This document shows positions 4,921-63,149 of a stretch of DNA of 63,862 bases, piece by piece. The stretch is from Myxococcota bacterium (GTDB taxonomy: Bacteria; Myxococcota_A; Polyangia; HGW-17): assembly GCA_018821305.1 (NCBI GenBank), contig JAHJMN010000085.1:1-63862 (forward strand), read 5' to 3'. How positions within the stretch are numbered: the first letter of the stretch is position 1; every line of letters begins with the position of its first letter. A program made the translations under genes and the position numbers. Below the pieces are notes generated by a model, which was not told the origin of the DNA, did no database searches, and worked only from the letters and a program-made list of their open reading frames with translations.

Positions 4921-5949
4921 ATGGCAGTAAATAATAAAATTACATCATTGATTACATTGTCATTTCTTTGGTACTTGTCTGCCTGCTCCACTCCAAAGCG
5001 GCCAGAGGGCAATTCTCAAAAAAAAATAGTCATTGAAAAGGTTTTCGCAGAGCCGAAAGTAAAACAAGTTGAAAAGTTAAAACAAAAGCCATCAATTCAG
5101 CTTACGCAGACGCAACCAGTTCCTGAAATGAAATCACCTCTGGTTGTATTCAGTTACAAGTTGGGTTGCCAGGAGGCAGCAGCATATATATACCCCGTGA
5201 CATGTTATGATCCGGCAGTAGGACTATGGATTACCGGCCCAAGGTGCCTGCGTTCTTTTGTCGGGACACGTTACCATCTTTTGTCTGATGGAGATGAAAA
5301 AGAAATTAAAGCATCGGCTGCCCTTGATTACAAAATTCCTGGTGTATTTACCTTCCTGCCATACAACAGTGAGCTTTTCGCATTCACAATAATTAAGGAT
5401 ATGACACATATAAAACTGGAAGCGGACAAAAGTCCAAAACTGAGTTGGAGCGAGAAGAAATTTATCAACGCTTTTACACGTCGAACAGCACCTGCATTGG
5501 CAAGAGACAGCGTCGTAAAAAAACCAGTCTTCTGGAAAGAACCGGAAATTGACAATATAAAAATTTTTGAGAGAACCATTGCTGATATTGACGAAGATGG
5601 TAAAAAGGACAGTGTTTATGCTGTGGAAATAACTTTCTCAGGAACAATTTCTCTCACTGCGACCATGCTTGTGTTTGCTCCCAGTGGTGATTTAAAAAAG
5701 CTTTCCTTTTTATTGGACAGCAAGGGAGCTCTAAGCACGCCTCGCTTTGTAGTCAATATTGGCAAAAAGCGATTTGTCCTCTTTCAGGATGATTCATTTT
5801 TATCTGGAGCCCGGGATGGGATAAGACTCATGCTTTGGGAAAATGGACGCCTTACTCCCGCTTTTCATATCTGCTGCATTTACGACAAAAAAATACAGAA
5901 AAACACTCCTGTCATATGTCCGGAAAAGAAAACAAAATCAGTGAAATAG
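4921..5949 (+). CDS. hypothetical lipoprotein (LSAC lipobox)
   Basis: Signal peptide with LWYLSAC lipobox; no recognisable catalytic motifs; ORF of 342 aa with upstream gggag RBS. Confidence 0.6.
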   Translation: MAVNNKITSLITLSFLWYLSACSTPKRPEGNSQKKIVIEKVFAEPKVKQVEKLKQKPSIQLTQTQPVPEMKSPLVVFSYKLGCQEAAAYIYPVTCYDPAVGLWITGPRCLRSFVGTRYHLLSDGDEKEIKASAALDYKIPGVFTFLPYNSELFAFTIIKDMTHIKLEADKSPKLSWSEKKFINAFTRRTAPALARDSVVKKPVFWKEPEIDNIKIFERTIADIDEDGKKDSVYAVEITFSGTISLTATMLVFAPSGDLKKLSFLLDSKGALSTPRFVVNIGKKRFVLFQDDSFLSGARDGIRLMLWENGRLTPAFHICCIYDKKIQKNTPVICPEKKTKSVK

Positions 5950-6077
5950 TTATTGTCCTGTAATACGTTCGTTTCAAGTTTACAGCAATTTTTACACATG
6001 ACATAAAAAATGGAAACCTTGAAATTATTGCAGTGTTCTGAAAAGTATGTTTTCCTAAACATACTCATTTTTGCAAG
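5950..6077 (+). repeat. S-T composite repeat, degenerate copy 2
   Basis: ttattgtcctgtaatacg directly after a TAG stop; T module 6012-6077 shares about 85% identity with copy 1, with the hairpin retained through compensatory changes (agtatgttt / aaacatact). Confidence 0.8.
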
Positions 6078-6122
6078 ATAGTAGATCCTGAGGATTTCCG
6101 GAACAGTATTGTAATTGAATTT

Positions 6123-6354: not shown

Positions 6355-6566
6355 TAGACCGCTTGCGGAATAAAAGGATTGAAAAGTGAAAAGTGTAAGT
6401 TTTCATCAACCATTTGTAATTATGCTTTGATGTTGTAAGTTTATGACCTGATTCTGATCCTGTTTGCCTGACTACCTGAGTTTCTGTTTAAAATTTCAGG
6501 GAAACAGGAAATCAGTAGCAGGAGCAGGACAATCAGGGTCTCTTTCCTGAAGCATTTCTTTAATAA
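6355..6566 (-). mobile_element. M element, reverse orientation, lacking its left-type terminus (copy M-f)
   Basis: tagaccgcttgcggaataaaaggattgaaa (right-type end) ... cctg arm ... cagg arm ... tctttcctgaagcatttctttaataa; aligns with M-g along its length. Confidence 0.8.
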
Positions 6567-6723
6567 TAATAACCATATGGTTTTCATCCATAAATTTACC
6601 CAGAACTTTGTCCTTTATTGAAGTAATCTTTTTCTCAAGGAAATGGATGGTTAATCCGCATATGGCTACAGTTGCATAATATACTTTAGAGTGTTGCGGA
6701 AGTCAAGGGCGTTTATTATATTT

Positions 6724-6817
6724 AGTTCGTGTCCTGTAATTCGCTTCGCTAAGGATTTTATTAAAAATCCTAACTAGACCGCTTGCGGAGTAATACGATT
6801 GTGACTCGGTTTAAACA
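6724..6817 (+). repeat. composite: caggacacgaac module (reverse complement), 8-bp hairpin, then solo M left end
   Basis: agttcgtgtcctg; aggatttt-atta-aaaatcct hairpin; ctagaccgcttgcggagtaatacgattgtgactcggtttaaaca is identical to the M-a left end over about 40 nt; ends 35 bp before the 6851 start codon. Confidence 0.8.
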
Positions 6818-6850
6818 TATGTAGTTCAACGAAAAAACTGGAGGAATATT

Positions 6851-8236
6851 ATGATACTGGATGAGAACACGTTAACTTCATCTAAAATCGGACTATTTAT
6901 TGTTATCTTTTTTCTATCCGCCTGCGCCGGTAGTGGGAAAAAGACTTCAGGATCCGGAGCGCCTACAGACCTGTCGGTCACTCCTGACTCCACAACGGAG
7001 CTTTTTCTTACATGGAAAGACAATACCGATACCGAGACCGGTTTCGTTATTGAACGCAGCGTAGATGGTCTCCATTTTGCAAATATCCATGAGACATTAC
7101 CTGACGAGACATCATGGACTGACACCGGTCTTAACCACTCAACAATGTACTACTATCGGGTTCAAGCAAAATTTGGCGATGCATTTTCCGGGTATTCCAA
7201 CGTGGCCTCCACATCCACACTTTGTGATGGGAACACTTCCCTTCGCTGTGGAGATCTATGCGTTAATCCCAACTATGACAAACTCAACTGTGGAACGTGC
7301 GGTAATGACTGCGATGACGGTCAGGTCTGCATCGAGGGAAGTTGTACGGAATCTCCTTGCGATCCTCCATGTCAAAACGGCGGAACATGCAGCGGACTCA
7401 ACCAATGCGAGTGCCTGAATGGATGGTCTGGGGAAACCTGTGAGGAATCGCTTTGCGATCCACCTTGCCAAAACGGTGGAACTTGTATCGGCGTAAATCA
7501 GTGCGAGTGCCTGAGCGGATGGTCAGGAGTAACCTGTGAGGAATCGCTATGCGATCCACCTTGCCAAAACGGTGGAACCTGCAGTGGCCCTGATCAGTGT
7601 TCATGTCCAGCTGGATGGTCGGGAGACATCTGTAATGTACCAAACTGCAATCCATCCTGCCAGAATGGTGGAACCTGCATAGCTCCGAATCAGTGTACAT
7701 GTCCTAATGGGTGGACAGGACAAACTTGTGAAACAGTAACTGATGCAATTCCCATCGACAAAATAGATATGGCTGCTCGGGGTGTTGGTAGTGAGCAGGT
7801 TTTAACCTGGCCACAAACAGCTCAATTGAACAGTATGAATATCCACTGGGGCAGTTGGTACGGAGCACCAACATGGTATGTCGATATTGACGCTGTGGGT
7901 CACCTTTCCTGGACTGAATATCGACCTTATGGAGGCCCTAACGATGTGTTGATTACCGGGAACATTTGGATCCTCGTTCCCCAGTCCGGTTCAGATCGTT
8001 GGTGGGCCGCTCCTTTCGAGGGACTGGTTAAATTTACTACCATTCATTGCGCGGGGAATCTTAATTTTGAACGTACCAACATCCTCGAAAACTCGCCTCT
8101 GGCTTCCCCCTGGCAGCCACAAGCAGGTGTGACTTACGGATGGATGATATCCACTAATGTATCCACATTCTTTCCTAGCTCTAACGATGATCAGCGCAGT
8201 AACATTATCCTCGAGACATGGCCTCCGAATCCATAA
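6851..8236 (+). CDS. secreted lipoprotein with fibronectin-III domain followed by five tandem EGF-like repeats
   Basis: Lipobox FFLSAC; FN3-like segment (LTWKDNT...YYYRVQA); five repeats of CDPPCQNGGTCxGxNQCxCxxGWSGxTCEES with classic EGF cysteine spacing; ggagg RBS at 6839. Confidence 0.65.
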   Translation: MILDENTLTSSKIGLFIVIFFLSACAGSGKKTSGSGAPTDLSVTPDSTTELFLTWKDNTDTETGFVIERSVDGLHFANIHETLPDETSWTDTGLNHSTMYYYRVQAKFGDAFSGYSNVASTSTLCDGNTSLRCGDLCVNPNYDKLNCGTCGNDCDDGQVCIEGSCTESPCDPPCQNGGTCSGLNQCECLNGWSGETCEESLCDPPCQNGGTCIGVNQCECLSGWSGVTCEESLCDPPCQNGGTCSGPDQCSCPAGWSGDICNVPNCNPSCQNGGTCIAPNQCTCPNGWTGQTCETVTDAIPIDKIDMAARGVGSEQVLTWPQTAQLNSMNIHWGSWYGAPTWYVDIDAVGHLSWTEYRPYGGPNDVLITGNIWILVPQSGSDRWWAAPFEGLVKFTTIHCAGNLNFERTNILENSPLASPWQPQAGVTYGWMISTNVSTFFPSSNDDQRSNIILETWPPNP

Positions 8237-8298
8237 ATTGCTCTTTGGAGCACTGATTCACATTCAAATAAAGACATCTTCATAACCAATTGCAATCA

Positions 8299-8576
8299 CT
8301 AAACCGCTTCTTGAGTAATACGATAGTAACTTAATTTAAAGAAATACTTCAGGAAAACGACGCTCAATAGCATTCCCCTGCGCGAAATTGCCTACCTGAT
8401 TGTCCTGATTCTGCTACTGGTTGCCTGTGTACCTGAAATTTTTACAGGTAAGTAGGTAAGCAGGAAACAGGAGCAGCAGCAGGTCGTAAACATTCAGCAT
8501 AAAGGCATAATTACAAAAGAAGACAATAATCCACTCAGTTTGAGATTTCGATCTTTTTACTCAAGAAGCGGTTTAG
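8299..8576 (+). mobile_element. M element, complete copy M-d (MITE, IS630/Tc1-like: TA-flanked, 21-bp perfect TIRs)
   Basis: TA at 8299-8300 and at 8574-8575; left aaccgcttcttgagtaa is the exact reverse complement of right ttactcaagaagcggtt; central cctg-arm / cagg-arm hairpin 8389-8487; conserved core cattcccctgcgcgaaattgcctacctg. Confidence 0.9.
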
Positions 8577-9667
8577 TAATCAAATAACTTCAGTTGTACG
8601 GGTTTTGAGTTTGCAGTGGGTTTCGGTTTGACATCTCCGAGGTTGGAAACGGATATTCCCAGAAGTCTTACTTTGACATCTCCTACAATGGCAATTTTTA
8701 AAAGGTCCCGGGCGGTCTTTATAATAAGTTCAAGATCATCAATGGGATGTGGAAACGATCGATTTCGAGTGATTTGCCGGAAATCACTGAATTTAATCTT
8801 TAAAGTAACCGTTCGGCCCTTTGTTTTATGTTTTAACATCCTTTTATGAACGATGTTCGCGATACGATCCAGTTCATAAGCCATCTCTTCAAACGTAGTT
8901 AGATCCTTCGCAAAAGTATCCTCAGCTCCCACGGATTTTGTTTCTCGATGAGGTTCTACTCTGCGCTCATCAATACCTCTTACAATTTTGTAATAAAACC
9001 GTCCAACCTTACCGAAATGCATCACAATATCTGCTTCAGAGAGTTTTTTAAGGTCAGACCCCGTGTGAAGGCCCATTTTCTTCATTTTCTCCGCAGTAAC
9101 TTTTCCCACTCCGAAAAACTTTTCCACAGGTAAGCTTTCAATAAAGCTTTCAACTTTCGAAGGACCGATAAAAGTGAGTCCGTCGGGTTTGTTCATATCT
9201 GACGCTACCTTGGCGACAAACTTGTTTACAGAAACCCCGGCGGAAGCAGTGAGATTGAGTTCTGTTTTAATTGCTGTGCGTATCTGCTCTGCAATTTCAA
9301 GAGCGGATCCGATGCCCTGTTTGTCCTGCGTAACATCAAGATAAGCTTCATCCAGAGAAAGTGGTTCAATTAAATCAGTGTAACGGGAAAAAATTTCCCT
9401 AATCTGTTCGGAAACGCGCTTGTAAACTTCGAATCGGGGATAAACAAAAATCAAATGAGGACAAAGCTTTTGTGCTCGCTTTGATGGCATGGCAGAATGG
9501 ATCCCATACTTTCGTGCTTCATAACTGCAGGTTGCTACAACACCGCCGCGCCCATCGGGGGATCCACCAACAGCAATGGGTTTTCCACGATAATCCGCAT
9601 TGTCCCGCTGCTCAACGGAAGCATAAAACGCATCCATATCAATATGAATTATTTTCCTGTCAAACAA
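8573..9667 (-). CDS. dinB: DNA polymerase IV (Y-family, error-prone)
   Basis: N-terminus KIIHIDMDAFYASVEQRDN and SYEARKYGI are canonical DinB/UmuC motifs; 364 aa; stop codon overlaps the terminus of repeat element M-d. Confidence 0.9.
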   Translation of the reverse strand: MFDRKIIHIDMDAFYASVEQRDNADYRGKPIAVGGSPDGRGGVVATCSYEARKYGIHSAMPSKRAQKLCPHLIFVYPRFEVYKRVSEQIREIFSRYTDLIEPLSLDEAYLDVTQDKQGIGSALEIAEQIRTAIKTELNLTASAGVSVNKFVAKVASDMNKPDGLTFIGPSKVESFIESLPVEKFFGVGKVTAEKMKKMGLHTGSDLKKLSEADIVMHFGKVGRFYYKIVRGIDERRVEPHRETKSVGAEDTFAKDLTTFEEMAYELDRIANIVHKRMLKHKTKGRTVTLKIKFSDFRQITRNRSFPHPIDDLELIIKTARDLLKIAIVGDVKVRLLGISVSNLGDVKPKPTANSKPVQLKLFDY

Positions 9668-9714
9668 GCAAAACCGCTTTCGTCCATATGATATTTCCCG
9701 GGAAATACTGCAAA

Positions 9715-10668
9715 TTAAAGGGGAAGAGGAACGTTTTCGATTATTGAATTGAGGATTTCCTCTGTGTCCGTGTATTCGAGACCCATGAGTTCCTGACGAG
9801 CGACCATGCGGTGTGCAAGAGCACAGGGAGCAAGTTCGTGAAGATCCTCAGGTACTACGTATTTGCGACCGTCGACCAGGGCAAGGGCTTTAGCTGTGCG
9901 AATCCATGAAATGAGGGCACGGGGACTGATGCCCAGAGCGAGCATTTCGTTTTTCCTGCTGTAAAGGCCGATTTTAAGTATGTATTCCACAAGCGAATCC
10001 GCGAGTTTTACGGTATCCACCATCTCCATTATGCCGGAAATCTCATCGGGCTCCAGCATTGTGCGAGCCTTTACGGTATTGCCGCGACCAGCACGTTTGA
10101 GGAGAAACATCTCTGACTCAGGTTGCGGGTAGCCGAGACGGAGCCGGATATCGAAACGATCAAGTTGGCTTTCGGGAAGAGGGTAAGTGCCAGCAATTTC
10201 AACGGGATTTTGTGTTGCAATTACGAAAAACGGGCGAAGCAGAGGATATGTTTCACCCTCAACCGTAACCTGATTTTCTTCCATAGCTTCTAAAAACGCA
10301 CTCTGAGTTCTCGGAGCAGCACGGTTAATTTCGTCAACAACAATTATATGGCTGAAGATGGGACCTTTACGGAAAGAAAGTTCACCATTCATTCCCCGGG
10401 GAATACTGTAGCCTACAACATCCGAAGGCAGAAGATCCGGTGTACACTGAATACGCTGAACACTGACACCAAGAACTTCACCCAGAGTGCGAGCAAGAGT
10501 AGTTTTACCAACTCCCGGTACATCTTCTAAAAGCAAATGCCCACCGGCAAAAAAGGCAGCAGAAGCAAACCGCACAATACGGCGGGGCCCAAGATAGTGG
10601 CGGCCGACTTCTTCAACAAGGTTTCGCAGGAGATTCTGGGAAGTTTCGTGATCCATTATAGTGACCAA
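9715..10668 (-). CDS. MoxR-family AAA+ ATPase (orphan, no adjacent VWA/DUF58 partner)
   Basis: Walker A GVGKTTLAR, Walker B IIVVDEINRA, 317 aa typical MoxR size; no partner gene on either side (MITE copies instead). Confidence 0.85.
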   Translation of the reverse strand: MVTIMDHETSQNLLRNLVEEVGRHYLGPRRIVRFASAAFFAGGHLLLEDVPGVGKTTLARTLGEVLGVSVQRIQCTPDLLPSDVVGYSIPRGMNGELSFRKGPIFSHIIVVDEINRAAPRTQSAFLEAMEENQVTVEGETYPLLRPFFVIATQNPVEIAGTYPLPESQLDRFDIRLRLGYPQPESEMFLLKRAGRGNTVKARTMLEPDEISGIMEMVDTVKLADSLVEYILKIGLYSRKNEMLALGISPRALISWIRTAKALALVDGRKYVVPEDLHELAPCALAHRMVARQELMGLEYTDTEEILNSIIENVPLPL

Positions 10669-10697
10669 GTCCAGTGCAACTTTTTGTGTTTTGTAAT

Positions 10698-10901
10698 GAG
10701 TTCGTGTCCTATTGCATTCCGCTGCGTGAAATTGCCTGCCTGAATTCCCTTTTACTGCTACTGCTTACCTGATTTTTTTAACAGACAATCAGGAATTCAG
10801 AAAATCAGGTTCAGGATCTGTGTAACCATTCAGAATTAAAACGAACGTAATTTTTAATTCAATTTCCCGGTTTCGATCCTTTTATTCCGCAAGCGGTCTA
10901 G
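10698..10901 (+). mobile_element. M element copy M-b, left end replaced by caggacacgaac module (reverse complement)
   Basis: gagttcgtgtcct then conserved core attgcattccgctgcgtgaaattgcctgcctg, hairpin arms, right end tttcgatccttttattccgcaagcggtc followed by TA (10899-10900). Confidence 0.85.
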
Positions 10902-12145
10902 AAAACATAACCCTTTGGTATAACGACGATATCTTCATCTGTGACGAAGAATCGCTGACGATCCCGGTATACGTCGTATCCGATTTCCTCGTTGGCTGGA
11001 ATCTGTATGTTTTTGTCAACTATACATCGTCTCAACCTTGCATTGCGTCCTACCTCGACGTTTTCGAAAAGAATTGAATCCTCAATTTGAGAATAGGAGT
11101 TAATGCGTACACAGGTACCGAGGATGGAGCGATCAATGCGACCACCGGAAATAATACACCCTTCAGAAACCAGTGAGTTCGTGGCGACACCCACGCGGGG
11201 ACCGTCGGCAAATACGAATTTGGCCGGAGGAAGTGGTTGATTATATGTATGAATAGGCCAATGCCGATTATAGAGATTGAACGTAGGGCTTACGCTTATC
11301 AGTTCCATATTGGCATCGAAGTAACTCTGAAGATTACCGACATCTCGCCAGTAGCCCTTCTCTCGTTCGGTTTCGCCGGGAACTATATTGCTTGAAAAAT
11401 CATAAACAAAAACCCTGTAGGACTCAACCATCTTGGGGATAACGTCCTTGCCGAAATCGTGACTTGAAGTTGGGTTTTCCGCATCCCGGGAAAGCTCGCT
11501 GACCAGCGGTAGGGGATCAAAAACATAGTTACCCATGGAAGCCAGTGCCCAACCGGGACGACCGGGAATTTCTTTGGGTTCTTTTGGTTTTTCCTGGAAT
11601 CCGAGAACCCGCCAGTTGGTGTCGACTTCAATGACGCCAAAAGAGCGTGCTTCTTCCACGGGGACTGGAATCGCAGCAATTGTGAGATCCGCACCAGCCA
11701 TGAGATGAAAATCGATCATCTGACGGATGTCCATAGTGTAAATGTGGTCGCCACCGAAAATACACATGATATCAGGACGTTCGTCAACGATTATGTTCAT
11801 GCTCTGGTAAATGGCATCAGCACTTCCTTTGAACCAGCTTTTATCCACTCGCTGCTGTGCAGGAACTGCTTCAATGTATTGACCAATGGTGAACGGAAAA
11901 TGCCAGCCTCGACTCAGGTGCTTGTTGAGACTGTCGGATTTGTATTGAGTCAGTACTTTAATCTTGTAAAGACCGCTATTTACGAAGTTTGACAGAACAA
12001 CGTCAATGAGACGGTACCGGCCACCGATGGGAACGGCGGGTTTTGCCCGGTCTGCGGTTAGAGGAAACAGGCGGCTTCCCACTCCGCCTGCCAGAACTAC
12101 GCTGAGTATTTTCGCAGTGGTTCTCTTTATGAGTAAATCGCGCAT
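10898..12145 (-). CDS. glgC: glucose-1-phosphate adenylyltransferase
   Basis: VLAGGVGSRLFPLT nucleotide-binding loop, PAVPIGGRYRLIDVVLSN motif, left-handed beta-helix C-terminus; stop codon overlaps terminus of repeat element M-b. Confidence 0.9.
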   Translation of the reverse strand: MRDLLIKRTTAKILSVVLAGGVGSRLFPLTADRAKPAVPIGGRYRLIDVVLSNFVNSGLYKIKVLTQYKSDSLNKHLSRGWHFPFTIGQYIEAVPAQQRVDKSWFKGSADAIYQSMNIIVDERPDIMCIFGGDHIYTMDIRQMIDFHLMAGADLTIAAIPVPVEEARSFGVIEVDTNWRVLGFQEKPKEPKEIPGRPGWALASMGNYVFDPLPLVSELSRDAENPTSSHDFGKDVIPKMVESYRVFVYDFSSNIVPGETEREKGYWRDVGNLQSYFDANMELISVSPTFNLYNRHWPIHTYNQPLPPAKFVFADGPRVGVATNSLVSEGCIISGGRIDRSILGTCVRINSYSQIEDSILFENVEVGRNARLRRCIVDKNIQIPANEEIGYDVYRDRQRFFVTDEDIVVIPKGYVF

Positions 12146-16331: not shown

Positions 16332-16589
16332 TTGAATAACGTCCTCTCAACCTGTTGCATTTCACAAGGCGAAATTGCTTGCCTGTAATCCATTACGGAA
16401 CACAAAAGATATTTTATGTCCTGAATTCCGAAACGAAACAACATAAATTGACTATTTTATATGCCCATAGTTGCGAATTTAATTTATTAAAAGTGTGTTT
16501 TGAAGAAAAAATTACAAAAAAATCAACACTCCACTTTGCACAGAACAGACAAAGGTGTATACTGTCATACCATTTCAGGAGGAGTACCC

Positions 16590-18077
16590 ATGAAAAAACT
16601 TACAATCTCTATAATTTTAGGTCTTGCGATGATTGCAGCTCCGGGTTGCGACGATGATTCTTCAAATCCGGCTCAGGAGATCTGTGATAACGGTAAGGAC
16701 GATGATGGCGATGGATTTATTGACTGTCTTGACCAGAACTGCTTTGGTGATCCCGCCTGCAACAGCACTCAGGAAATCTGCGACAACGATCAGGATGATG
16801 ATGGTGACGGATTTGTGGATTGCGATGATGCCGATTGCGTAAACGAATGCGAATACACAGAAATCTGCAACAATGAAATCGACGACGATGACGATGGTTA
16901 TGTAGACTGCGATGATCAGGATTGCTCCGGCAGCCAATTCTGCAATGCAACAGAGGAAATCTGCAACAATAACCTTGATGATGATCTCGATGGTGCCATT
17001 GACTGCGATGACTCCGATTGTTCCGAACATCCATCCTGCATCACAAATGATGAAATCTGTGACAATGGCGTTGATGACGATGGGGACGGGTTTGTGGATT
17101 GCAATGACGCCGATTGCGAAGACGAATGCGAATTAACAGAAGTCTGCAACAATGAGCAGGACGATGATGAAGACGGTTTTGTAGATTGTGAAGATCAGGA
17201 TTGCTGGAATCACCAGTACTGCAACCTTCCTGTGGAAAACTGCACAAACGGCATTGACGACGATATGGACGGCGATGTTGACTGTGAAGACGGCGACTGT
17301 CGTGAACACCCTGACTGCTGGATCACTCAGGAAGATTGTGAAAACGGCATTGACGATGACAACGACGGCTTCGTTGACTGCAACGATTCCGACTGTGCGG
17401 ATCAGTGTGTCTTCCTTGAAAATTGTAATAATCAGATTGATGATGATGGCGATGGATATGTTGACTGTGAAGATCAGGATTGCTGGAACAATCAGGTTTG
17501 TCAGGCTCAGACGGAAATCTGCTATAACGGCCTTGATGATGACGGTGATGGCGACATCGATTGCGATGACTGGGACTGCTATAATTCACCCTATTGCCCG
17601 GGCTCTGAAGAAATCTGCAATAACATGTGGGATGATGATGGCGATGGCGACATCGATTGCGCCGATGCAGACTGCGCAATGGATCCATGGTGTCAGACTC
17701 CTAGAGAACAGGATTGCTCAAACTGGCAGGACGATGATGGCGACGGATATCGTGATTGCCGTGATTCCGACTGCATAGGAGATGCAGCATGCGGTGAATG
17801 TAACGCAGTGGATGGCTCCGGATGCGGAAATGGGACTTATTGCTACTTTGATCGTCAGGATAATTATCAGGGCAACTGCACAACGGAGCATGGTACAGGA
17901 AGTGTTGGAGATCCCTGCCAGACGGAAACGGAATGTTCCGTAGGTCTTTTCTGCAATCAACAAACAGATGTTTGTGACGAACTTTGCCTCCTTGGCACTG
18001 TATGTTCATCCTCAGGCGGCACTGCAACCATGTGTACTGAAGCATGGAACGGAAGCCCCTACGGCTACTGTCCGTAA
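16590..18077 (+). CDS. secreted lipoprotein made of ~11 Cys/Asp-rich putative metal/Ca-binding repeats (ICDNGxDDDGDGFVDCxDxDC)
   Basis: RBS aggagga then ATG at 16590; lipobox LAMIAAPGC; tandem ~37-aa repeats with higher-order ~330-nt nucleotide periodicity; the ORF-track start at 16500 is upstream of the RBS and judged too early. Confidence 0.7.
   Translation: MKKLTISIILGLAMIAAPGCDDDSSNPAQEICDNGKDDDGDGFIDCLDQNCFGDPACNSTQEICDNDQDDDGDGFVDCDDADCVNECEYTEICNNEIDDDDDGYVDCDDQDCSGSQFCNATEEICNNNLDDDLDGAIDCDDSDCSEHPSCITNDEICDNGVDDDGDGFVDCNDADCEDECELTEVCNNEQDDDEDGFVDCEDQDCWNHQYCNLPVENCTNGIDDDMDGDVDCEDGDCREHPDCWITQEDCENGIDDDNDGFVDCNDSDCADQCVFLENCNNQIDDDGDGYVDCEDQDCWNNQVCQAQTEICYNGLDDDGDGDIDCDDWDCYNSPYCPGSEEICNNMWDDDGDGDIDCADADCAMDPWCQTPREQDCSNWQDDDGDGYRDCRDSDCIGDAACGECNAVDGSGCGNGTYCYFDRQDNYQGNCTTEHGTGSVGDPCQTETECSVGLFCNQQTDVCDELCLLGTVCSSSGGTATMCTEAWNGSPYGYCP
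16650..17700 (+). repeat. intragenic tandem DNA repeats (about 111 nt units in about 330-nt higher-order blocks) encoding the Cys/Asp-rich repeats
   Basis: Recurring gaaatctgcgacaa ... gatgatgatggcgatgg ... gattgcgatgat strings at about 111-nt spacing across 16650-17700. Confidence 0.7.
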
Positions 18078-19150: not shown

Positions 19151-19159
19151 AATATAAAT

Positions 19160-19310
19160 CCCTGTTTTCAATCCTGATCCCTGCCCCTGTTTTGCTGATT
19201 CCCTCGCTACCTGATTTCCTGAATGTTCTTGATTTTATCAATGCTTATTCTTTTTTTTAACAATAACAGTTAATACGCCTTAACCAAATAGCATTGGGTA
19301 TAGAAACCTT
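19160..19310 (-). repeat. partial M-k-like unit (CCTG arm) fused to a Q-like module
   Basis: ccctgttttcaatcctgatccctgcccctgttttgctgattccctcgctacctgatttcctgaat then ttaatacgccttaaccaaatagcattggg; compare 60390-60528. Confidence 0.6.
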
Positions 19311-19449: not shown

Positions 19450-21141
19450 ATGTCAGAAAAAGTAATCATTATTGGTGGTTCCGCTGCCGGACCAAAAACC
19501 GCTGCTAAAGTGCGCAGACTCAGTGAAGATGCGGACATTACTATCATTGAAAAAGGTAAATTCCTTTCCATGGCAAGCTGCGGTTATCCCTATTTTGTAG
19601 GAGGAGTGTTCGATAACCGAAACATGCTGCTTTGCACCCCCACAGGCGTTTTGCGTGACCCAACTTTCTACATGAATGCAAAAGCAATAAAAGCTGAAAC
19701 TGAAACTGAAGTTGTTGCAATTAACCGTGCAGAAAAGACCGTTAGTTGCAAACGCACAAATGGTGAAGAGTTCGTCCTTTCTTATGATAAATTGATGATT
19801 TCTACCGGTTCCATCCCTCGAATGCCTTTTAAAGAAGGCCTTGAACTTGATGGAGTAACAACACTTCAATCCATTTCTGATGCGGAATATTTAAGAAAAA
19901 TTCGTGATGAAAAAAAGATTCGCAAGGCTGTCATCATCGGTGGTGGTCTCATAGGTATCGAGACCGCTGAAGCCCTTCGTCTTGCTGGAATCGAAATCAC
20001 AATTGTTGAAATGGCGGATCAGGTCCTGCCTTATCTTGACTGGGAACTTGCCGCTCATGTTGAAAAACACCTTAAAACAAAGGGAGTAAATGTTTTCACC
20101 GGGATGAAAGTTGAAAAACTTATAGGCGAAAACGGAGTAATAACGGCAGTCAAACTTGGAAACGGAACAGAAATCCCATGTGAACTAGCCGTAGTCGCCA
20201 TCGGTGTTTTACCAAACAGGGAGCTAGCTGAAAAAGCAGGCCTTGAAATCGGTGCTGCCGGTGGAATTAAGGTCAACAGTTTTCTCCAGACCAGTGATCC
20301 GGACATATACGCCGCGGGTGATTGTATTGAAATAAATCATATAATTACACAAAAGCAAACATACAGTCCTATGGGCGATCTGGCAAATCTTCAAGGCCGT
20401 ATTGCAGCAGAGAACATGATAAACGGCCCAGAGGTAAAGTTCTCCGGAACTATACAAACAGCCATCTGTCGCATTTTCGAGTACAGTGCTGGCGCTACGG
20501 GCTGCAATGAAAAAGCCGCAAGAGCCGCTGGCTACGATGTCGAAACTGTCATTATAACAGGACCAGACAAACCTGGCTTTATGAATGGTTTGCTCCTGAT
20601 TTCCAAAATGGTTGTGGATCGCAAAACAGGTAGACTAATCGGTTTCCAATGTACAGGCCCCGGGGATGTATCTAAACAGGTAGCTCAGGCAGCTTTAGCA
20701 ATCAAAGGCGGTCTAACGATCAATGATCTCAGGGATCTCGACCTGCCCTATGCACCTCCATTTTCTCTGGCTGTGGACAATTTCATTGCTTGTGCCCACG
20801 CTATGGAGAACAAACTTCTTGGACGAATGAAGGGCATCAGCGCGAGGGAAGTCCGTAAAATGAAGTGTGACAACACATCAAAACCCTTCATTCTGGATGT
20901 CCGTGGTCCTGACGAATTTGAAGCTATGCGCCTTGGAATAGGAGAAGTCCTGATTCCCCTTGGAGCCCTGAGAAAACGAATCAATGAACTTCCCGCCGAT
21001 AAAAATCACGAAATCATTACTTTTTGTAAGATTTCCCTCCGAGGATATGAGGCGGCCCTGATTCTGGTGTCAGCTGGCTACACAAATGTGAAAGTCCTCG
21101 AAGGTGGCATTATGGCATGGCCCTTTGATAGGGAAAAATAG
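19450..21141 (+). CDS. CoA-disulfide reductase/NADH oxidase-like flavoprotein with C-terminal rhodanese domain
   Basis: FAD motif IIGGSAAGPKTA, redox-active Cys in SCGYPYFVGG, second Rossmann GGGLIGIE, C-terminal rhodanese with Cys in FCKISLRG. Confidence 0.85.
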   Translation: MSEKVIIIGGSAAGPKTAAKVRRLSEDADITIIEKGKFLSMASCGYPYFVGGVFDNRNMLLCTPTGVLRDPTFYMNAKAIKAETETEVVAINRAEKTVSCKRTNGEEFVLSYDKLMISTGSIPRMPFKEGLELDGVTTLQSISDAEYLRKIRDEKKIRKAVIIGGGLIGIETAEALRLAGIEITIVEMADQVLPYLDWELAAHVEKHLKTKGVNVFTGMKVEKLIGENGVITAVKLGNGTEIPCELAVVAIGVLPNRELAEKAGLEIGAAGGIKVNSFLQTSDPDIYAAGDCIEINHIITQKQTYSPMGDLANLQGRIAAENMINGPEVKFSGTIQTAICRIFEYSAGATGCNEKAARAAGYDVETVIITGPDKPGFMNGLLLISKMVVDRKTGRLIGFQCTGPGDVSKQVAQAALAIKGGLTINDLRDLDLPYAPPFSLAVDNFIACAHAMENKLLGRMKGISAREVRKMKCDNTSKPFILDVRGPDEFEAMRLGIGEVLIPLGALRKRINELPADKNHEIITFCKISLRGYEAALILVSAGYTNVKVLEGGIMAWPFDREK

Positions 21142-21165: not shown

Positions 21166-21447
21166 CGTTACCGTTTTCGGAGTAATACTATAGTGAACAA
21201 TTTTCAGTAAATGCTACAGGAATGAGCCCCTCTAAAGCATTCCGCTGCGCGTTATTGCCTACCTGATTACCTTGTTCATGCTAATGATTTCCTGTTTGCC
21301 TGATTTTTTTTAACAGGAACTCAGGCAGTCAGGCAAACAGGCTCAGGATCAGGTCATAAACATTCAATATCAATGTAAAATTAAAAAGACTGAAAGAAAA
21401 TACTCACTGTTCTATTCTCGATCCTTTTACTCGAAAGCAGTCTAATC
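21166..21447 (+). mobile_element. M element, complete divergent copy M-c
   Basis: TA-ccgttttcggagtaatactatagtgaac ... conserved core aaagcattccgctgcgcgttattgcctacctg ... hairpin ... ctcgatccttttactcgaaagcagtc-TA. Confidence 0.85.
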
Positions 21448-28649: not shown

Positions 28650-28657
28650 TTGTTAGG

Positions 28658-28712
28658 TTACTGTCCGAAATACTGGTTTCGACTTTTTAGACTGAATTTT
28701 AATTCAGGACAG
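28658..28712 (+). repeat. S-like hairpin module between the glycosyltransferase-like gene and hslV
   Basis: ttactgtcc (28658-28666) ... caggacag (28705-28712), 9 nt after the TAA stop. Confidence 0.55.
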
Positions 28713-31395: not shown

Positions 31396-31450
31396 TAGTT
31401 ACTGTCCTGAAATTCAATTTTTCAAAGGGTTCTTTGCCTGAAGTTTTTCT
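31396..31450 (+). repeat. S-prime module (tagttactgtcctga ... ttcaaagggttctttgcctgaagtttttct), truncated by the M-g insertion
   Basis: Matches 31719-31795 (about 80% identity); begins 2 nt after the panD TAA stop. Confidence 0.7.
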
Positions 31451-31451
31451 T

Positions 31452-31697
31452 TTGACCGCTTCATGAGTAAAAGGATCGAAATCTAAAAAGTGAATATTGT
31501 CATCCTACCCTTTGTAATTATGCTTTGATTTTAAATGTTTATGACCTGAACCTGATCCTGATTGCCTGACTACCTGTGTCCCTTTTTAAAATTTCAGGGA
31601 AACAGGAACTCAGTAGCAGGAACAGGAAAACAGGGGGCTCATTCCTGAAGCATTTCTTTAAAACAAGTCACACTCGTATTACTCCGCAAGCGATCTA
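31452..31697 (-). mobile_element. M element, complete copy in reverse orientation (M-g)
   Basis: ttgaccgcttcatgagtaaaaggatcgaaat (reverse complement of right-type end) ... cctg/cagg hairpin ... cattcctgaagcatttctttaaaacaagtcacactcgtattactccgcaagcgatc-TA. Confidence 0.85.
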
Positions 31698-31718: not shown

Positions 31719-31836
31719 GGTTACTGTCCTGAGCAATAATTGGGCGAAAAATTTGATTTTCGGTATTTCAAAGGGGTCTTTGCCTGAAGTTTTTCTCTAA
31801 AATTCAACACAATCGTATTACTTCACAAGCGGTCAA
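31719..31836 (+). repeat. second S-prime module plus a left-type M terminus in reverse orientation
   Basis: ggttactgtcctgagc ... ttcaaaggggtctttgcctgaagtttttctc then caatcgtattacttcacaagcggtc. Confidence 0.7.
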
Positions 31837-32001: not shown

Positions 32002-32814
32002 GTGAAAACTTTTTTTCTGATTTTTCTATCTTTGTTTCTAGTAAACTGCAAATCCAGTAAGGACGACAAACCACTGCTGGTGGAAAATACAAAAGACACA
32101 CCTGAGACACAGAAGAGCGATCTGAAAACTCCCGATAAAATCAAGAAACCTGCTCCAGAACCGGTTCTAACGGATGAGTTCAAACTTCCGGAAGGTAGCG
32201 CCGGGTATATCTGGATCTCGGACAAAAATCTGACCACAACAGGAAAGATTTTAAAAACTTCAGGTTCCGTGAGCAGTCTTTATTTCATTAAACTCAATAA
32301 TGAAGGCAAATTTGAAATCCTTTCTGCAGCTCCGGATCCAAAGGGTCCCATCGGGATAAACAAAAAATATTTTAATTACCCCAAGGGGCTTTCAGCGGGT
32401 TTGAGTTCCGTCAAAATAAACCATGAAGTTTCGTCAATGGCTGTATATCTTAGTCAATTCAAGAAATCCACCCTTGAAAAAGTTTTCAAAAAACTTCCTG
32501 GGTTCAAACTTAAGACAATACAAGTTGTTGAAAAGCAGGGTTTATTTGCCATTAGTTTAATTTCGACCGTTAATTATTCCAATGATCTGTTTAATGCCCT
32601 GACCTATTGGAAACAACTGGCCTTAAACAGCCGTATCCATATTGAAAAATTAGCACCGGGGGCATCTAAAACTGGTATTGCTTTGAATAATATCAAAATT
32701 ACAGGAAAAAAGAGAACCATTACCGTGGAGATTCCCTTCGCATATGATGACATTCTCTGGTCAGTAAATGAACTGAACCGTCTTTACATTTTTGTTAAAA
32801 GAGGTGGACAATGA
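32002..32814 (+). CDS. hypothetical lipoprotein (LVNC lipobox), upstream of and overlapping rex
   Basis: Signal peptide and lipobox; lysine-rich; ATGA overlap with rex start. Confidence 0.55.
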   Translation: MKTFFLIFLSLFLVNCKSSKDDKPLLVENTKDTPETQKSDLKTPDKIKKPAPEPVLTDEFKLPEGSAGYIWISDKNLTTTGKILKTSGSVSSLYFIKLNNEGKFEILSAAPDPKGPIGINKKYFNYPKGLSAGLSSVKINHEVSSMAVYLSQFKKSTLEKVFKKLPGFKLKTIQVVEKQGLFAISLISTVNYSNDLFNALTYWKQLALNSRIHIEKLAPGASKTGIALNNIKITGKKRTITVEIPFAYDDILWSVNELNRLYIFVKRGGQ

Positions 32815-33482
32815 ACGGAGATAGCACCATTTCATCGAAAGGAAATCCCATTCCTCATGCTACGATGGAGCGTTTGCCCAGATATCTGATGCAACTCTAT
32901 CGCTTCCGGGTTATTGGTGATGCCAATGTATCATCTCAGGCTCTGGGTGAAAGCCTGGGACTCAAAGACACTCAAATCCGAAAGGATCTCTCGTACTTTG
33001 GTGTCTTTGGGAAAGCTCGTTATGGATACAATATTGACTTTCTCATCGATGCTCTGGAGAAAATTCTCGGACTGACTCGAGTTTATAATCTAGCCATCGT
33101 TGGAGCTGGAAACATCGGCCGAGCCCTGGCAACGTACCGAGGTTTCGAGAGTAGAGAATTTAGAGTAAAACTGATTTTCGACAATAATAAAGGTCTCATC
33201 GGTCAGGATATTGGAGGCATTGTTGTTCAGGACTTTCGACTGCTTGAAGAAAAGATAAAAGAAATTCCCGTCGATATAGCGATAATTGCGGTTCCTGAAA
33301 AAGCCGCTTATGAAGTAGCTGAAACCCTTGTAAAAGCAGGCATTAAAGCAATTTATAACTTTACACCTGCGGAACTTCACCACCACGAAGGTGTTTTCAT
33401 TGAGCATGCAAGTATATCCTTCGGGATTTACAAACTTGCTCACCACCTTTCCGGCCACTGGCCCCGGAAATCCCAGCGCTAG
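32811..33482 (+). CDS. rex: redox-sensing transcriptional repressor Rex
   Basis: N-terminal winged helix IPHATMERLPRYLMQL and Rossmann IVGAGNIGRALA NADH-binding motif. Confidence 0.85.
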   Translation: MNGDSTISSKGNPIPHATMERLPRYLMQLYRFRVIGDANVSSQALGESLGLKDTQIRKDLSYFGVFGKARYGYNIDFLIDALEKILGLTRVYNLAIVGAGNIGRALATYRGFESREFRVKLIFDNNKGLIGQDIGGIVVQDFRLLEEKIKEIPVDIAIIAVPEKAAYEVAETLVKAGIKAIYNFTPAELHHHEGVFIEHASISFGIYKLAHHLSGHWPRKSQR

Positions 33483-33561: not shown

Positions 33562-33565
33562 ATGC

Positions 33566-34012
33566 TTATGAAACTCTTATCTGCTGTCCAGGCATTCTCA
33601 TTACTGGACAACCATTTCTTCGTTTATCATTATTTTTCTCGCCCTTTGTATTTGGGCAGGCATCATCAGTATCTGGAATTCCGTCACCATCATTATCCAA
33701 ATCAGGACATCCATCTGAGTCATCAAACCCATCACGATCCTCGGGCTTATCTGGACAAGCGTCTCGAACATCGGGGATTCCATCTCCGTCAGTATCAACT
33801 TTCGATGCCGGATCCGGGATATTGGAATCTTTGGATGTATCGGTTTTATTACTGCTTCCTTTCCGATCTTCAGGAGTTACTATTGTGGATTCAGTTGACG
33901 CACTTCCACAACTGGAAACAGTCAGAACAAAGGACAAGCCCGCTATTATTGAAGACACTGATTTCCCTGATGGATATTTGACTTCATTTGTTTGGATCTT
34001 TTGCAGTTTCAT
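33566..34012 (-). CDS. small lipoprotein with thrombospondin type-3-like Ca-binding repeats
   Basis: Lipobox LTVSSCGS; repeats [16 protein letters not shown] / [17 protein letters not shown]. Confidence 0.6.
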
Positions 34013-60161: not shown

Positions 60162-60528
60162 ACTTAACCCCAACAGTATTGTGTCTAATGGCAATGCTGA
60201 TCGGTTAGCGAACTTCCGAGTGAATTAATTAATAAATACAATCTTGTATAATAATTTCAGGCAGGCAGGAATTCAGGAAAACAGGGATCAGGAACAGGGC
60301 GTTTACTTTGAAGGTGTGCGTTTTTGTGGCATAAAGACCGCTTTCGTAAGCGGTCAAGATCGATTTCAATTCAGTATTTGCATATACACCTTCAGGAACA
60401 AGACCCTGTATCCTGATTCTGCTCCTGTTTCTGACTCCCTGAATATTTTTACTATTACTTATTATTATTATTTTTGTTAACAATATCAACTAATACGCCT
60501 TAACCGATCAGCATTGTGTCTAATGGCA
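60162..60528. repeat. composite locus: Q module (A-B), inverted CAGG/CCTG hairpin unit M-k with palindromic core agaccgctttcgtaagcggtc, then Q module (B-prime-A)
   Basis: 60174-60207 cagtattgtgtctaatggcaatgctgatcggtta and 60490-60528 aatacgccttaaccgatcagcattgtgtctaatggca share attgtgtctaatggca directly and gctgatcggtta inverted; cagg arm 60258-60296; cctg arm 60392-60440. Confidence 0.7.
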
Positions 60529-61248
60529 GATACAGTCTTCAGTCCACCCCATATGGGGACACATGCTCCAGCCGTAGTAATCTCCCTCAAAGTCAAGAAC
60601 CACCATTTCCGTTCCGTCAACTGTGGAACGATAGAAGCCGGAATCTATTTGTCCCCCACTGCCATTCAGCAGCATCAAACACAAAGGCGCCGAAACACCT
60701 TCATCGAATTCGGTGCACACACCATCAGCATATGAAGCTCTTGGCTCGTCGGGTAAAAAATCAGAACAACCGTATGCAAAACAGTCTTCTTGGTTGGTGA
60801 AAGTATCACATACAGCAGGATCAAAGTCCGGACAGACGCATTGGAGGCGGAGAAGACGGTCATTTTCACCTGACATATCACACATTGTCCATCCTGCAAG
60901 ATCACTCAGATTTGACTCAAGTCTGATTCCCTCTCTTCCGGTGGCCGTATCTCTTACCCAGATGTAACTGGATGGTTTGGTATTGTCATCTTCCATTGAA
61001 GCTACACAGAGGTATGTATACACGGACTCAAAGTTTGTGCAAACCGTTCCATCCAGTGTAGCATTTCCAGCTACCCGAATCCAGGCACCGCATCCGGCAT
61101 CAAGGCAGCTGCTCTCAGTAGTGAATTTTTCACAGTCCTTCGGTGGTCCATCATCATCGCAGGCAACAAAGAGGAAAGTACTCACAAAGATTACACCTGA
61201 AAAGATAATTTTCTTTATCGTCTTACTCCAAGTAAAGGTCAAGTACAA
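60520..61248 (-). CDS. cysteine-rich secreted lipoprotein (242 aa)
   Basis: Lipobox FLFVAC; about 24 Cys; flanked on both sides by repeat elements; stop codon inside repeat module Q. Confidence 0.55.
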   Translation of the reverse strand: MYLTFTWSKTIKKIIFSGVIFVSTFLFVACDDDGPPKDCEKFTTESSCLDAGCGAWIRVAGNATLDGTVCTNFESVYTYLCVASMEDDNTKPSSYIWVRDTATGREGIRLESNLSDLAGWTMCDMSGENDRLLRLQCVCPDFDPAVCDTFTNQEDCFAYGCSDFLPDEPRASYADGVCTEFDEGVSAPLCLMLLNGSGGQIDSGFYRSTVDGTEMVVLDFEGDYYGWSMCPHMGWTEDCICH

Positions 61249-61660: not shown

Positions 61661-61733
61661 TTCCATTTTCGCATTCGCCATTTTAATTTTCAGGACACGA
61701 ACGAATTAAGTGGTGGACTGGATATCGGAAATT

Positions 61734-63149
61734 ATGCACACTGTGGAAAGAATATGGAGGAGACATTCTTTGAAAAATATTACTTATTATCTACTGTTTT
61801 TATTTGTCTTATCATGTATATCCTGTTCAGATGATAAATCTACTAAATCATCTGTCATTTATGAACCAGATGAAGAAGACCTTGATGAAAACGGTTTACC
61901 CAAACCTGGATTCGAAGTTCGAATTCCCGTTATAACTGATATTGATGAATACGTTATTGAACTCGAGAGATGGGAAATTCCTTCCGATGGCACTGATTTC
62001 GCAACGACGACTACCAACTTGCAGGCCGCTATTGATTGGGCACACAATGAAGGCTATTCCCGCGTAGTTTTGCCCCAGGGCCAATACCTGGTAAGTAAAG
62101 ATGTAAACGACAATTATCAAGGTGGAATTGAAATTTATGGAAATACAGAGTTTGTATTCAGTGAAGGTGCCGAAATAATAATGGATACAAACGACAAATG
62201 GAACTATTGCGTGCTGCGCCTGAATGGTGACAACATTATCGTCCGTAATGGCATTATTACCGGAGATCGCGATACCCATGTGTTTACACCGAGATCTGAC
62301 GGTGGTACTGCTCATGATGAAGGGCATGGAATTTGTGTGTGGGAAAACAACAACGTGCTCATTGACAATATGGAAGTCCGGGATTTGACCGGGGACGGTT
62401 CCCTCGTGCTTGATTCAACGGACATTACTATTGTTTCCTGTGATATTTACAATAATCGAAGGCAGGGAATTTCTATTGTGGGTGGCGTGAGGATTGCGGT
62501 AACTGATAATACTATTCACCACATTAATGGTACAGCACCACAGTTCGGTATAGATATCGAGGGTCCCGGTCGCCTGGATAAAGATATTCTGATACAAAAT
62601 AACAGTTTTCATCACAATACAGGTGGGGATATTGTTAATGCCACTGGCGAAAACGTTTATATTCTCGATAATGTAATGGAGCAGGGTGAAGGCAGCACTT
62701 ATGTCGATGGTCCTTTGGTAACCTGGCATAAAACCCACAGCATAATTGCAAGAAATACAATCTCAATGATTTCAGGTTCGGTAAACGGTCGTCTGGGTTT
62801 TATACAGTACTCCGGCGGTGGTGACAAAGGGCACAATCGGGCAACCTACGTTCACGATAATATCTGTAATAATTGTGGAATGTACATGTATAAAAGCTCC
62901 CAGGCGGATGTACGTCGGAATCAATTCCTCGGGTACTTTATGGCGTTCAGCAAATTCGTGAACGTCATACTGATTGATAATCTTGTGACATTTTCCGATG
63001 AATACCCTGACCTCAGGTATTGCTGGTCATACCGTTTTGATGATGTTACAGGTTTCGCAAGTGGAAACCGTTTAGGAGACGCCATCGAAGAAATTCCCCT
63101 TTCTGAAACCGAGCCCTACACACTCCAGTGTGTCCTTTACGGCTGGTGA
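61734..63149 (+). CDS. right-handed parallel beta-helix (pectate-lyase-fold) secreted protein
   Basis: Repeated NxxxxGI/V beta-helix coils (GDRDTHVF, NRRQGISIVGG, NTGGDIV); lipobox-like LSCISC; alternative TTG start at 61770 has the better RBS (ggagg at 61756) and gives a clean lipoprotein signal. Confidence 0.6.
   Translation: MHTVERIWRRHSLKNITYYLLFLFVLSCISCSDDKSTKSSVIYEPDEEDLDENGLPKPGFEVRIPVITDIDEYVIELERWEIPSDGTDFATTTTNLQAAIDWAHNEGYSRVVLPQGQYLVSKDVNDNYQGGIEIYGNTEFVFSEGAEIIMDTNDKWNYCVLRLNGDNIIVRNGIITGDRDTHVFTPRSDGGTAHDEGHGICVWENNNVLIDNMEVRDLTGDGSLVLDSTDITIVSCDIYNNRRQGISIVGGVRIAVTDNTIHHINGTAPQFGIDIEGPGRLDKDILIQNNSFHHNTGGDIVNATGENVYILDNVMEQGEGSTYVDGPLVTWHKTHSIIARNTISMISGSVNGRLGFIQYSGGGDKGHNRATYVHDNICNNCGMYMYKSSQADVRRNQFLGYFMAFSKFVNVILIDNLVTFSDEYPDLRYCWSYRFDDVTGFASGNRLGDAIEEIPLSETEPYTLQCVLYGW

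Follow-up and report, generated by a model that had tools for sequence, protein, structure and literature searches.

Termini of a TA-flanked miniature repeat element complete the stop codons of dinB, glgC and rex in an uncultured Myxococcota lineage

Introduction

When the end of a repeat element falls exactly on the stop codon of a gene, one has to ask whether the element has cut the gene short, whether it was drawn to the stop codon, or whether element and gene can share a codon at no cost to the protein. This question is raised by contig JAHJMN010000085.1 of a Myxococcota bacterium (assembly GCA_018821305.1), the whole of which (63,862 nt) is referred to below as the window. Here the stop codons of dinB, glgC and rex each consist of a TA dinucleotide and the outermost base of a short repeat element that we call M. 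A sequence-only reading of the window had pointed out the first two of these coincidences and had attributed them to insertion into the TA of an existing stop; the case of rex was absent from its list and is added here.

M has inserted in or at these three stop codons; in each, a working stop is completed by the first base of the element, and the proteins are unaltered. As an explanation of the whole we consider it probable that M is a miniature inverted-repeat transposable element (MITE) that inserts at C-TA, that its ends, beginning with a purine, rebuild stop codons, and that selection leaves such copies standing.

Stop codons at element junctions

M is a non-coding element of ∼275 bp, of the MITE type, with ∼12 copies or fragments in the 64-kb window. 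Full copies carry at both ends terminal inverted repeats (TIRs) of ∼17 nt with the consensus GACCGCTTGCGGAGTAA; behind the TIRs lie two distinct arms, End A (...GTAATACGATTGTGA) and End B (...ATAAAAGGATCGAAA), and the centre is a CCTG/CAGG palindrome. The dinucleotide TA flanks 11 of the 16 recognisable termini.

The gene dinB (DNA polymerase IV, 364 aa; 8573-9667, minus strand; NF002677, 1.9e-144) adjoins a complete copy, M-d (8302-8573, plus strand), with End A on the left, End B on the right, TA at 8300-8301 and 8574-8575, and AACCGCTTCTTGAGTAA as both TIRs. The TAA stop of dinB (8573-8575, minus strand) is made of the flanking TA (8574-8575) and the first base of the End-B terminus, an A (8573); the plus strand reads ...aagaagcggtt-ta-g, with the ‘tta’ at 8573-8575 being the minus-strand TAA. 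The gene glgC (glucose-1-phosphate adenylyltransferase, 415 aa; 10898-12145, minus strand) has the same arrangement with respect to M-b (10709-10898, plus strand), a copy with End B on the right and the End-A arm missing, next to which (10669-10708) there is unique DNA and sequence resembling a second repeat family, P, described below. The TAG stop of glgC (10898-10900, minus strand) joins the TA at 10899-10900 to the first base of the End-B terminus, a G; on the plus strand, ...caagcggtc-ta-g, it appears as the ‘cta’ at 10898-10900. The letters at both junctions thus bear out the composition of the two stops given by the sequence-only reading.

The third exact case is the stop of rex (redox-sensing repressor, 223 aa; 32811-33482, plus strand; Pfam Put_DNA-bind_N and CoA_binding). 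Its TAG (33480-33482, plus strand) combines TA at 33480-33481 with the G of an End-B terminus, GTCCGTTTCCTGAGAAAAAGGATCGAGA, belonging to a truncated copy that retains the End-B arm only (∼90 nt; 33482-33571, plus strand) and fills the spacer between rex and a convergent lipoprotein gene. In all three exact cases it is End B that faces the incoming gene.

Protein ends at the junctions

The most direct evidence on the fate of the proteins comes from glgC, for which sites lacking the element were found. Four M-free relatives with GlgC 77-88% identical at the amino acid level keep the gene order of glgC followed by a gene for an AAA ATPase. In L062/L063 (88% identity) the site reads gtt ttc TAA atattaat ATG, with the next gene starting at +8 bp; in L064/L065 (80%) it reads gta ttt TGA gtaat ATG (+5 bp); in L072 (80%) gtg ttt TGA is overlapped by the next gene; and in L073 (77%) the two genes overlap in gtt ttt TAATG. 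The filled junction of the window is gtt ttc TAG followed by ACCGCTTGCGG... A BLAST search of ∼25 kb of L062-L065 gave no M or P sequence.

In the empty-site relatives GlgC ends in ...PK(G/N)(Y/F)VF and the stop follows at once. The 16 nearest GlgC homologs (73-99% identity) finish at the same Phe, with ...PKG[YF][VI]F or ...PKNFVF. The window protein, ending in ...VIPKGYVF, is aligned to position 407 of 408 of the profile NF002023 (3.9e-183). Since the C-terminus is common to the empty-site relatives and the 16 homologs, the protein was left unchanged by M-b. It had been predicted from the sequence alone that orthologs would have a native TAA or TAG at the same position and no C-terminal change: the position and the C-terminus are as predicted, and so is the TAA of L062 and L073, but L064 and L072 use TGA. 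Either TAA or TGA at an empty junction fits a TA duplication and a TA brought in by the element alike.

The insertion also changed the spacing of the two genes. In the relatives the ATPase gene starts at -4 to +8 bp relative to the stop of glgC; in the window the distance is 229 bp, counted to the open reading frame (ORF) start of the AAA_3 (MoxR-like) ATPase gene (9715-10668, minus strand; the ATG is probably at 10656). As the two genes overlap or almost touch in relatives, the stop codon was practically the only target at which M-b could enter the pair and destroy neither gene.

Two contigs (L001 and L061) of one relative, from Logan run SRR32001354, also carry M; apart from the window organism this is the only carrier found, with GlgC 99% and DinB 90% identical to the window proteins. 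The same glgC insertion is present in L061. The tip of its TIR has decayed, reading TAG followed by ATCACTTTTTGAATAAAAGGATC, with 6 mismatches in 12 positions, yet the G that completes the stop is kept.

DinB of the window, identical to protein MBU13816, ends in VQLKLFDY, two residues past an intact QLKLF (QLxLF) beta-clamp motif. Its nearest homologs end alike (P0002 in ..QLKLFDF and P0003 in ..QLKLFLF), and the dinB of P0003 has a native TAG stop and no element. The distal flank of M-d (TA then G on the coding strand) leads to an original TAC-TAG, i.e. a CTAG target. In L001 the TAA stop of dinB also directly adjoins an M terminus, this one being End A instead of End B; either the same TA was struck twice, or an inversion took place between the identical TIRs. 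We observed further that DinB shares 73-76% identity with its counterparts in Bacteroidota (Chitinophaga, Mucilaginibacter) and that in four relatives (L062, L064, L072 and L073) no dinB follows the AAA ATPase gene; by these comparisons dinB looks to have been acquired horizontally in the window lineage.

Rex is full length, its residues 12-214 aligning to positions 4-206 of 213 of NF003995. When the proteins of rex, panD and the DMT_6 gene were looked up by exact match, every record found came from the window organism itself, at 100% identity (GCA_018820545.1, SRR2544012).

A terminus that begins with a purine, placed beside the TA of a stop, was said in the sequence-only reading to keep both a working stop and an unaltered protein. 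The empty glgC sites and the intact ends of DinB and Rex agree with this; that the TA is a target duplication, as was also said there, is a point that we infer.

These observations bear on the possibility that genes were truncated or altered at the 3′-end by a premature or replacement stop brought in by the element. GlgC, DinB and Rex end where relatives or profiles end, with no sign that the genes were once longer than the current stop, and for glgC truncation is refuted. What speaks for such an effect are two other loci. At the first, the lipoprotein gene convergent with rex (33566..34012, minus strand), which encodes thrombospondin type-3 (TSP3) repeats, stops 11 residues past the last repeat, with its TAA in sequence derived from the truncated M; in three of the four longer homologs scanned with Pfam an OmpA domain stands at that point. 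Judged from this comparison, the lipoprotein gene is probably truncated at its 3′-end, and the simplest reading would be a deletion by which M lost its End-A half and the gene its 3′ part. Not every M copy is harmless, then: the truncated copy beside rex has as its neighbour a lipoprotein gene whose OmpA domain seems to have been lost.

At the second locus the 10-mer AGCGGTCTAG (54457-54466, plus strand) ends exactly on the stop of oadB. The string is present, as had been noted, but no downstream element has its terminus there: the string is coding sequence for the last residues (..K V A V and the stop), and it is oriented as a right junction would be, which would place the body of the element within oadB. 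OadB aligns to a solved Salmonella protein until three residues before the end of the latter and then continues for five more, being at most 2 aa longer, and the last two codons match an M terminus. Exact matches to AGCGGTCTAG in the window number five, four of which are M termini. Chance is an improbable source, as a rough composition-based estimate gives ∼4e-4 for the 7-mer AGCGGTC before one of ∼12 TAG stops. The string arose by chance or is, possibly, a remnant TA-GCGGTC-TA of a lost copy inserted in the stop; heavily deleted M derivatives exist, e.g. at 35015-35115. It is a P-family terminus that follows the oadB stop. Taking the two loci together with the intact ends of GlgC, DinB and Rex, we regard truncation or alteration of genes as a very improbable account of the stop-codon copies.

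Target site and frequency at stops

The base preceding the flanking TA on the outer side (position -1) is C at 8 of 11 M termini, against 11% at intergenic TA (p=3e-6). The target is not plain TA, as the sequence-only reading had it, but C-TA(-G/A). At glgC the C at -1 is the last base of a Phe codon, TTC, and the empty-site relative L062 has the same codon there; at dinB, L001 has T at -1 in place of C. Reconstructed targets are C-TA-G for the dinB copy and C-TA-A for the copy at 61382.

Three other descriptions of the junctions were considered and rejected. The C at -1 could be a base of the element (with a TIR of CTAGACC...), but TTC at the empty site in L062 and T in L001 rule this out. 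A duplication of 3 or 4 bp (CTA, CTAG) fails at the copy 8302-8573, whose flanks, CTAA and TTAG, have only TA in common; no direct repeat longer than TA was found flanking the two-ended copies at 8302-8573 and 61384-61656. Finally, a rule that End B is always turned to the gene is broken by the End A in L001 and by the copy at 21169, which faces a stop with End A.

The C-TA preference resembles the CTAG target of IS630, and from these features M would be assigned to the IS630 group. By the title of a 1991 paper by Tenzen and Ohtsubo, an IS630-associated transposon reportedly transposes preferentially to the TA in 5′-CTAG-3′. The IS630-family element ISY100 inserts almost solely at TA, duplicating it (PMC2170065).

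The M family and its junctions are clearly above chance. Whether M is found at stops more often than expected was assessed with two null models, each taking ∼12 independent insertions. The first considered all TA, namely 339 in repeat-free intergenic DNA and 30 in TAA or TAG stops: 3 of 12 insertions in stops compare with an expected 8.1% (p=0.068). The second was target-aware and admitted only TA with C before or G after (69 intergenic and 16 in stops): the expected share rises to 18.8%, and the same 3 of 12 give p=0.4. Thus, enrichment of M at stops beyond target preference and selection is not shown in the window; the overlap is real, yet quantitatively unremarkable when the sequence preference is taken into account.

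One may still suppose that the transposase reads CTAG or CTAA in a termination context, so that the overlap would be a property of targeting. The strong bias to C at -1 suits such homing, as does the comparison with the plain TA null. CTAG is rare in the window (28 occurrences, with 43.5 expected under a second-order Markov model), and of the 28 five are M junctions and three are stop codons. Moreover, the dinB stop was occupied in two lineages in opposite orientations. Against these points, stops make up 19% of the permissive C-TA and TA-G targets, a share at which three insertions in 12 are expected; six intergenic CTAG sites are empty; most M copies are located away from stops; and the opposite orientations at dinB could as well have come from inversion between 17-nt identical TIRs. 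Active homing to stops seems to us, on balance, decidedly doubtful, only a little less so than truncation.

Conservation of the glgC copy

The orthologous copies at glgC (10709-10898 in the window and 8337-8535 in L061) are 89% identical, with 92% in the interior. The first 12 nt of the L061 copy match at 6 of 12 positions, against the 92% of the interior (Fisher p=5e-4). Meanwhile, 4-fold degenerate sites in eight gene pairs compared between the window and L061/L001 are 54-67% identical, with no shift in G+C, and repeat-free spacers of the same genome pair are 78-91% identical. Thus the glgC copy behaves as other intergenic DNA does here, unlike neutral sequence as judged by synonymous sites. 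That non-coding DNA is better conserved than synonymous sites is unexpected; it could reflect constraint (e.g. on a leader of the ATPase gene), recombination, or synonymous divergence inflated by some other cause.

With this comparison in mind, copies at gene ends may be thought to have been kept for a function, either as inter-cistronic or 3′-UTR (untranslated region) RNA structure or as promoter or leader of the downstream gene, in which case the overlap would be a selected fusion of transcripts. This would agree with the identity of the glgC copy exceeding that of the 4-fold sites of the eight flanking genes at equal G+C, with End B being directed towards the incoming gene in three of three exact cases, and with the clustering of three repeat families 0-5 nt from stops. 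M is also predicted to fold far better than shuffled sequence, with both TIRs paired (z = -6.0 for the copy 8302-8573 and -7.1 for another); any element with TIRs would, however, be expected to fold strongly. Against a function, ordinary intergenic spacers of the same genome pair are equally conserved, so that M is not special in this respect; the copies in the genome share only 71-78% identity and are often truncated; some lie upstream of genes and between divergent starts; and L001 turns End A to dinB, so that orientation is not fixed. A scan of 8200-11000 for promoters and terminators found nothing in the M copies on the relevant strand, with counts at the level of shuffled sequence, and Rfam covariance models gave no match at gathering score anywhere in the window. 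Retention of the gene-end copies for a function is therefore, in our view, rather unlikely, though less so than homing to stops.

In its fullest form the idea would be that stop-fused copies were recruited: after splitting the coupled pair of glgC and the AAA ATPase gene, M would have become a conserved inter-cistronic module, and the purine-first termini would be an adaptation to stops as safe harbours in operons poor in spacers. To this we give the same low credence. Only the conservation of the glgC copy could raise the importance of the case.

Copies of M in the window

M is a family of small non-coding elements with TIRs, dispersed in multiple copies, and with both filled and empty sites; we regard it as a MITE family that is new, from an uncultured lineage, and whose behaviour is of a known kind. 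Copies are 246-285 bp long, and stops interrupt all six frames in the six copies checked. Searching the window with the consensus terminus and up to 4 substitutions gives 14 true matches, while AGCGGTCTAG with at most 1 mismatch gives 14 matches, against 1.4 expected from shuffles. Pairwise identity among copies within the genome (71-78%) indicates that the family is old. Of the copies in the window four are complete; about eight more are truncated, internally deleted or nested.

Among the complete copies the one nearest to the family consensus (61384-61656, plus strand; TA at 61382-83 and 61657-58) is located between divergent gene starts, with no stop there. Another (21169-21442, plus strand), with decayed termini, a left flank GT and a right flank TA, lies 27 nt past the stop of 19450..21141. 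A third (31454-31695, minus strand; flanks TT and TA) has a short internal deletion and sits inside a 607-bp spacer filled with repeats. M-d, the remaining one, has TIRs (8302-8318 and 8557-8573) that are identical over 17 nt and share four departures from the consensus (A1, C10, T11 and T12), which suggests a concerted change of both ends or a distinct subfamily.

The partial copies include one without End A (6357-6563, minus strand; TA at 6355-6356); a 45-nt End-A fragment (6777-6821, plus strand; TA at 6775-6776) followed after 30 nt by the start of ORF 6851; a 62-nt End-A fragment (31773-31834, minus strand); the internally deleted 101-bp derivative with End B and End A (35015-35115, plus strand; TA at 35013-14); and an End-A half whose first base is T (63175-63282, plus strand; TA at 63173-74), found 24 nt past the TGA stop of 61710..63149. 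The two T-first copies (21169 and 63175) stand 24-27 nt beyond stops and not in them, in line with a role of the first base.

A 1059-aa chimeric protein query assembled from open stretches of six M copies had zero matches. Scanning public genome contigs with GACCGCTTGCGGARTAAWA returned 5 unrelated matches only, and a scan of public metagenome contigs with ACCGCTTNNNNRRTAATACGAT returned 52 single matches, none of which was confirmed by whole-element BLAST.

Other repeats and context of the window

The second repeat family, P, has the terminus GTTACTGTCCTG... and occurs in two forms, a hairpin unit of ∼60 bp and a longer one of ∼155 bp that ends in ...CAGGACACGAAC. Its copies are at 1-146, 5947-6099, 6718-6743, 28654-28710, 31396-31450, 31720-31770, 35124-35149, 54467-54488 and 63708-63862. 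The geometry described for M recurs in this family: the TAG stop of ORF 4921..5949 (5947-5949, plus strand) is made of TA and the G of a P terminus (GTTATTGTCCTG...); the gene 4921..5949 has no family match. P termini are found 0-5 nt past stops, exactly so at 5947-5949, at ∼2 nt for panD, oadB and DUF3795, and at 5 nt past the stop at 28647. Both contig ends (1-146 and 63711-63862) are the same P repeat, 90% identical over 125 nt, indicating that the assembly broke at repeats.

Module Q (60192-60516) is an element distinct from M, with junctions of another type: its inverted ends are CAATGCTGATCGGTTAG and TTAACCGATCAGCATTG, and a direct repeat of 10-16 nt (60178-60193 and 60513-60528) flanks it. 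The minus-strand stop at 60520-60522 had been placed inside this module; in fact it is 3 nt outside the inverted end of Q, in the flanking direct repeat, which contains the stop of gene 60520..61248 (minus strand). A relative of Q is seen at 19211-19299, and the interior of Q has M-like CCTG/CAGG sequence as well as an M-like terminus at 60338-60357 (GACCGCTTTCGTAAGCGGTC). When L061 1-90 is compared with window 19151-19300, an M End-A terminus is seen 18 nt past the UPF0158 stop in L061 and a Q-type repeat in the window; thus, different repeats occupy the same spacer in the two lineages.

The window, a contig of a metagenome-assembled genome, has a G+C content of ∼42%; greedy selection of ORFs yields 53 genes, which leave ∼7.7-7.9 kb of intergenic DNA. 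Repeat sequence common to several spacers amounts to ∼2.9 kb (∼3.3 kb with hand-widened intervals). Sibling assemblies (GCA_018820545.1 and Logan SRR2544012) are 100% identical over 2.5-6.7 kb. Repeats of another kind are present within two genes: ORF 16500..18077 has an in-frame tandem array (16677-17774) of twelve 87-99-nt units with the Cys/Asp-rich motif C.N..DDDGDG..DC.D.DC, and ORF 6851..8236 has one (7325-7708) of four 96-nt EGF-like Cys-rich units. The proteins of both ORFs have no Pfam or NCBIfam match.

Discussion

In the explanation that we favour, M copies would be non-autonomous derivatives of a cut-and-paste transposon, ∼275 bp long with ∼17-nt TIRs and an internal palindrome. 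Most likely they integrate at TA with its duplication and with C favoured before it, a CTAG/CTAA-like target as for IS630-family transposases. Nearly all copies are purine-first (G, or A in the dinB copy), and insertion into the TA of a TAA or TAG would recreate TA plus a purine in frame. In a tight genome, with an ancestral spacer of -4 to +8 bp between glgC and the AAA gene, the TA of a stop would be among the few spots that spare both genes, and purifying selection would leave the stop-codon copies standing. A TAG stop would itself be a half-site of the preferred target. Target preference and selection would then suffice to account for three of ∼12 copies in stops, and no dedicated homing to stops would be needed. 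Later the copies would decay by truncation, by nested insertion of other repeat families and by degeneration of TIR tips, while the first base would stay constrained as the third base of the stop codon.

Several observations weigh against this explanation. At 5 of the 16 recognisable termini there is no flanking TA. Empty sites are known only for the one-ended copy at glgC, so that the TA may instead belong to the element, with no duplication. The identity of the glgC copy (89%, compared with 54-67% at 4-fold sites) fits poorly with a purely neutral fossil. When termini of M and of the second family are counted together, 7 of ∼22 are at most 5 nt from a stop, against 10.8% (p=0.007, with the threshold and the count of events chosen post hoc). 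Three repeat families, including Q with its flanking repeat of 10-16 nt, crowd 0-5 nt from stops, which hints at something beyond TA chemistry. No transposase or autonomous partner with matching TIRs was detected among the window ORFs (47 scanned with Pfam, 9 with NCBIfam). The sample for M is also small, being one 64-kb window and two short contigs of one relative.

The features of M have counterparts among known bacterial repeats. Bacterial MITEs typically have TA ends, and the RUP element of Streptococcus pneumoniae was linked to IS630-Spn1 (Delihas 2008, PMC2229807). Like RUP and other MITEs mobilised by IS630, M is short, non-coding and multicopy, has TA-flanked TIRs, is mostly intergenic and is present or absent among relatives; unlike RUP (107 bp), it is ∼275 bp long and has a large CCTG/CAGG palindrome. 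The likeness is one of features. The position of M at the extreme 3′-end of genes, where it supplies a stop without truncation, has a parallel in BOX of S. pneumoniae: 36 genes of that species have their stop codon within a BOX repeat and show no evident truncation in comparison with orthologs (Croucher et al. 2011, PMC3049150). BOX differs in being a modular A-B-C repeat without TA-flanked TIRs and in having the stop inside the repeat, while the stop at M is made of the host TA and one base of the element.

The Correia elements (NEMIS) of Neisseria are likewise TA-flanked multicopy elements with inverted repeats, of 100-160 bp, often located just downstream of genes, co-transcribed with them and forming long hairpins (PMC2229807). 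Of the functional features known for Correia (an IHF site, RNase III processing and promoters), promoter-like sites were looked for in the M copies at dinB and glgC and did not turn up on the relevant strand. Compared by eye with the Correia consensus, the M TIR looks unrelated; the hosts are labelled Myxococcota for M and Neisseria for Correia. Finally, REP/BIME sequences are palindromes of 20-40 nt linked to Y1 (RAYT) transposases; they have no TA-flanked TIRs and gather directly past stops in compact genomes. M does not fit this description, and the small P hairpins of the window are nearer to such a habit than M is.

The rebuilding of stops by M is a tidy example of a habit known for bacterial repeat elements and not a new mechanism: it is what one would expect from the TA-flanked insertion chemistry that we infer, and repeats that supply stops have already been described. 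The case adds a well-resolved example in glgC, narrows the target motif to C-TA and shows one signal of conservation. For annotators it follows that in metagenome-assembled genomes rich in repeats a stop codon may be a chimera of a host TA and a base of an element, and that contigs break at such repeats, both ends of the window being the same repeat. For the M family itself, the preference for C-TA would explain why TAG stops attract it. With its empty-site orthologs, the case documents a TA-flanked mobile element at zero distance from a gene that leaves the protein unaltered, and it indicates that an insertion of M can pry apart a pair of genes that overlap, or nearly so, in relatives.

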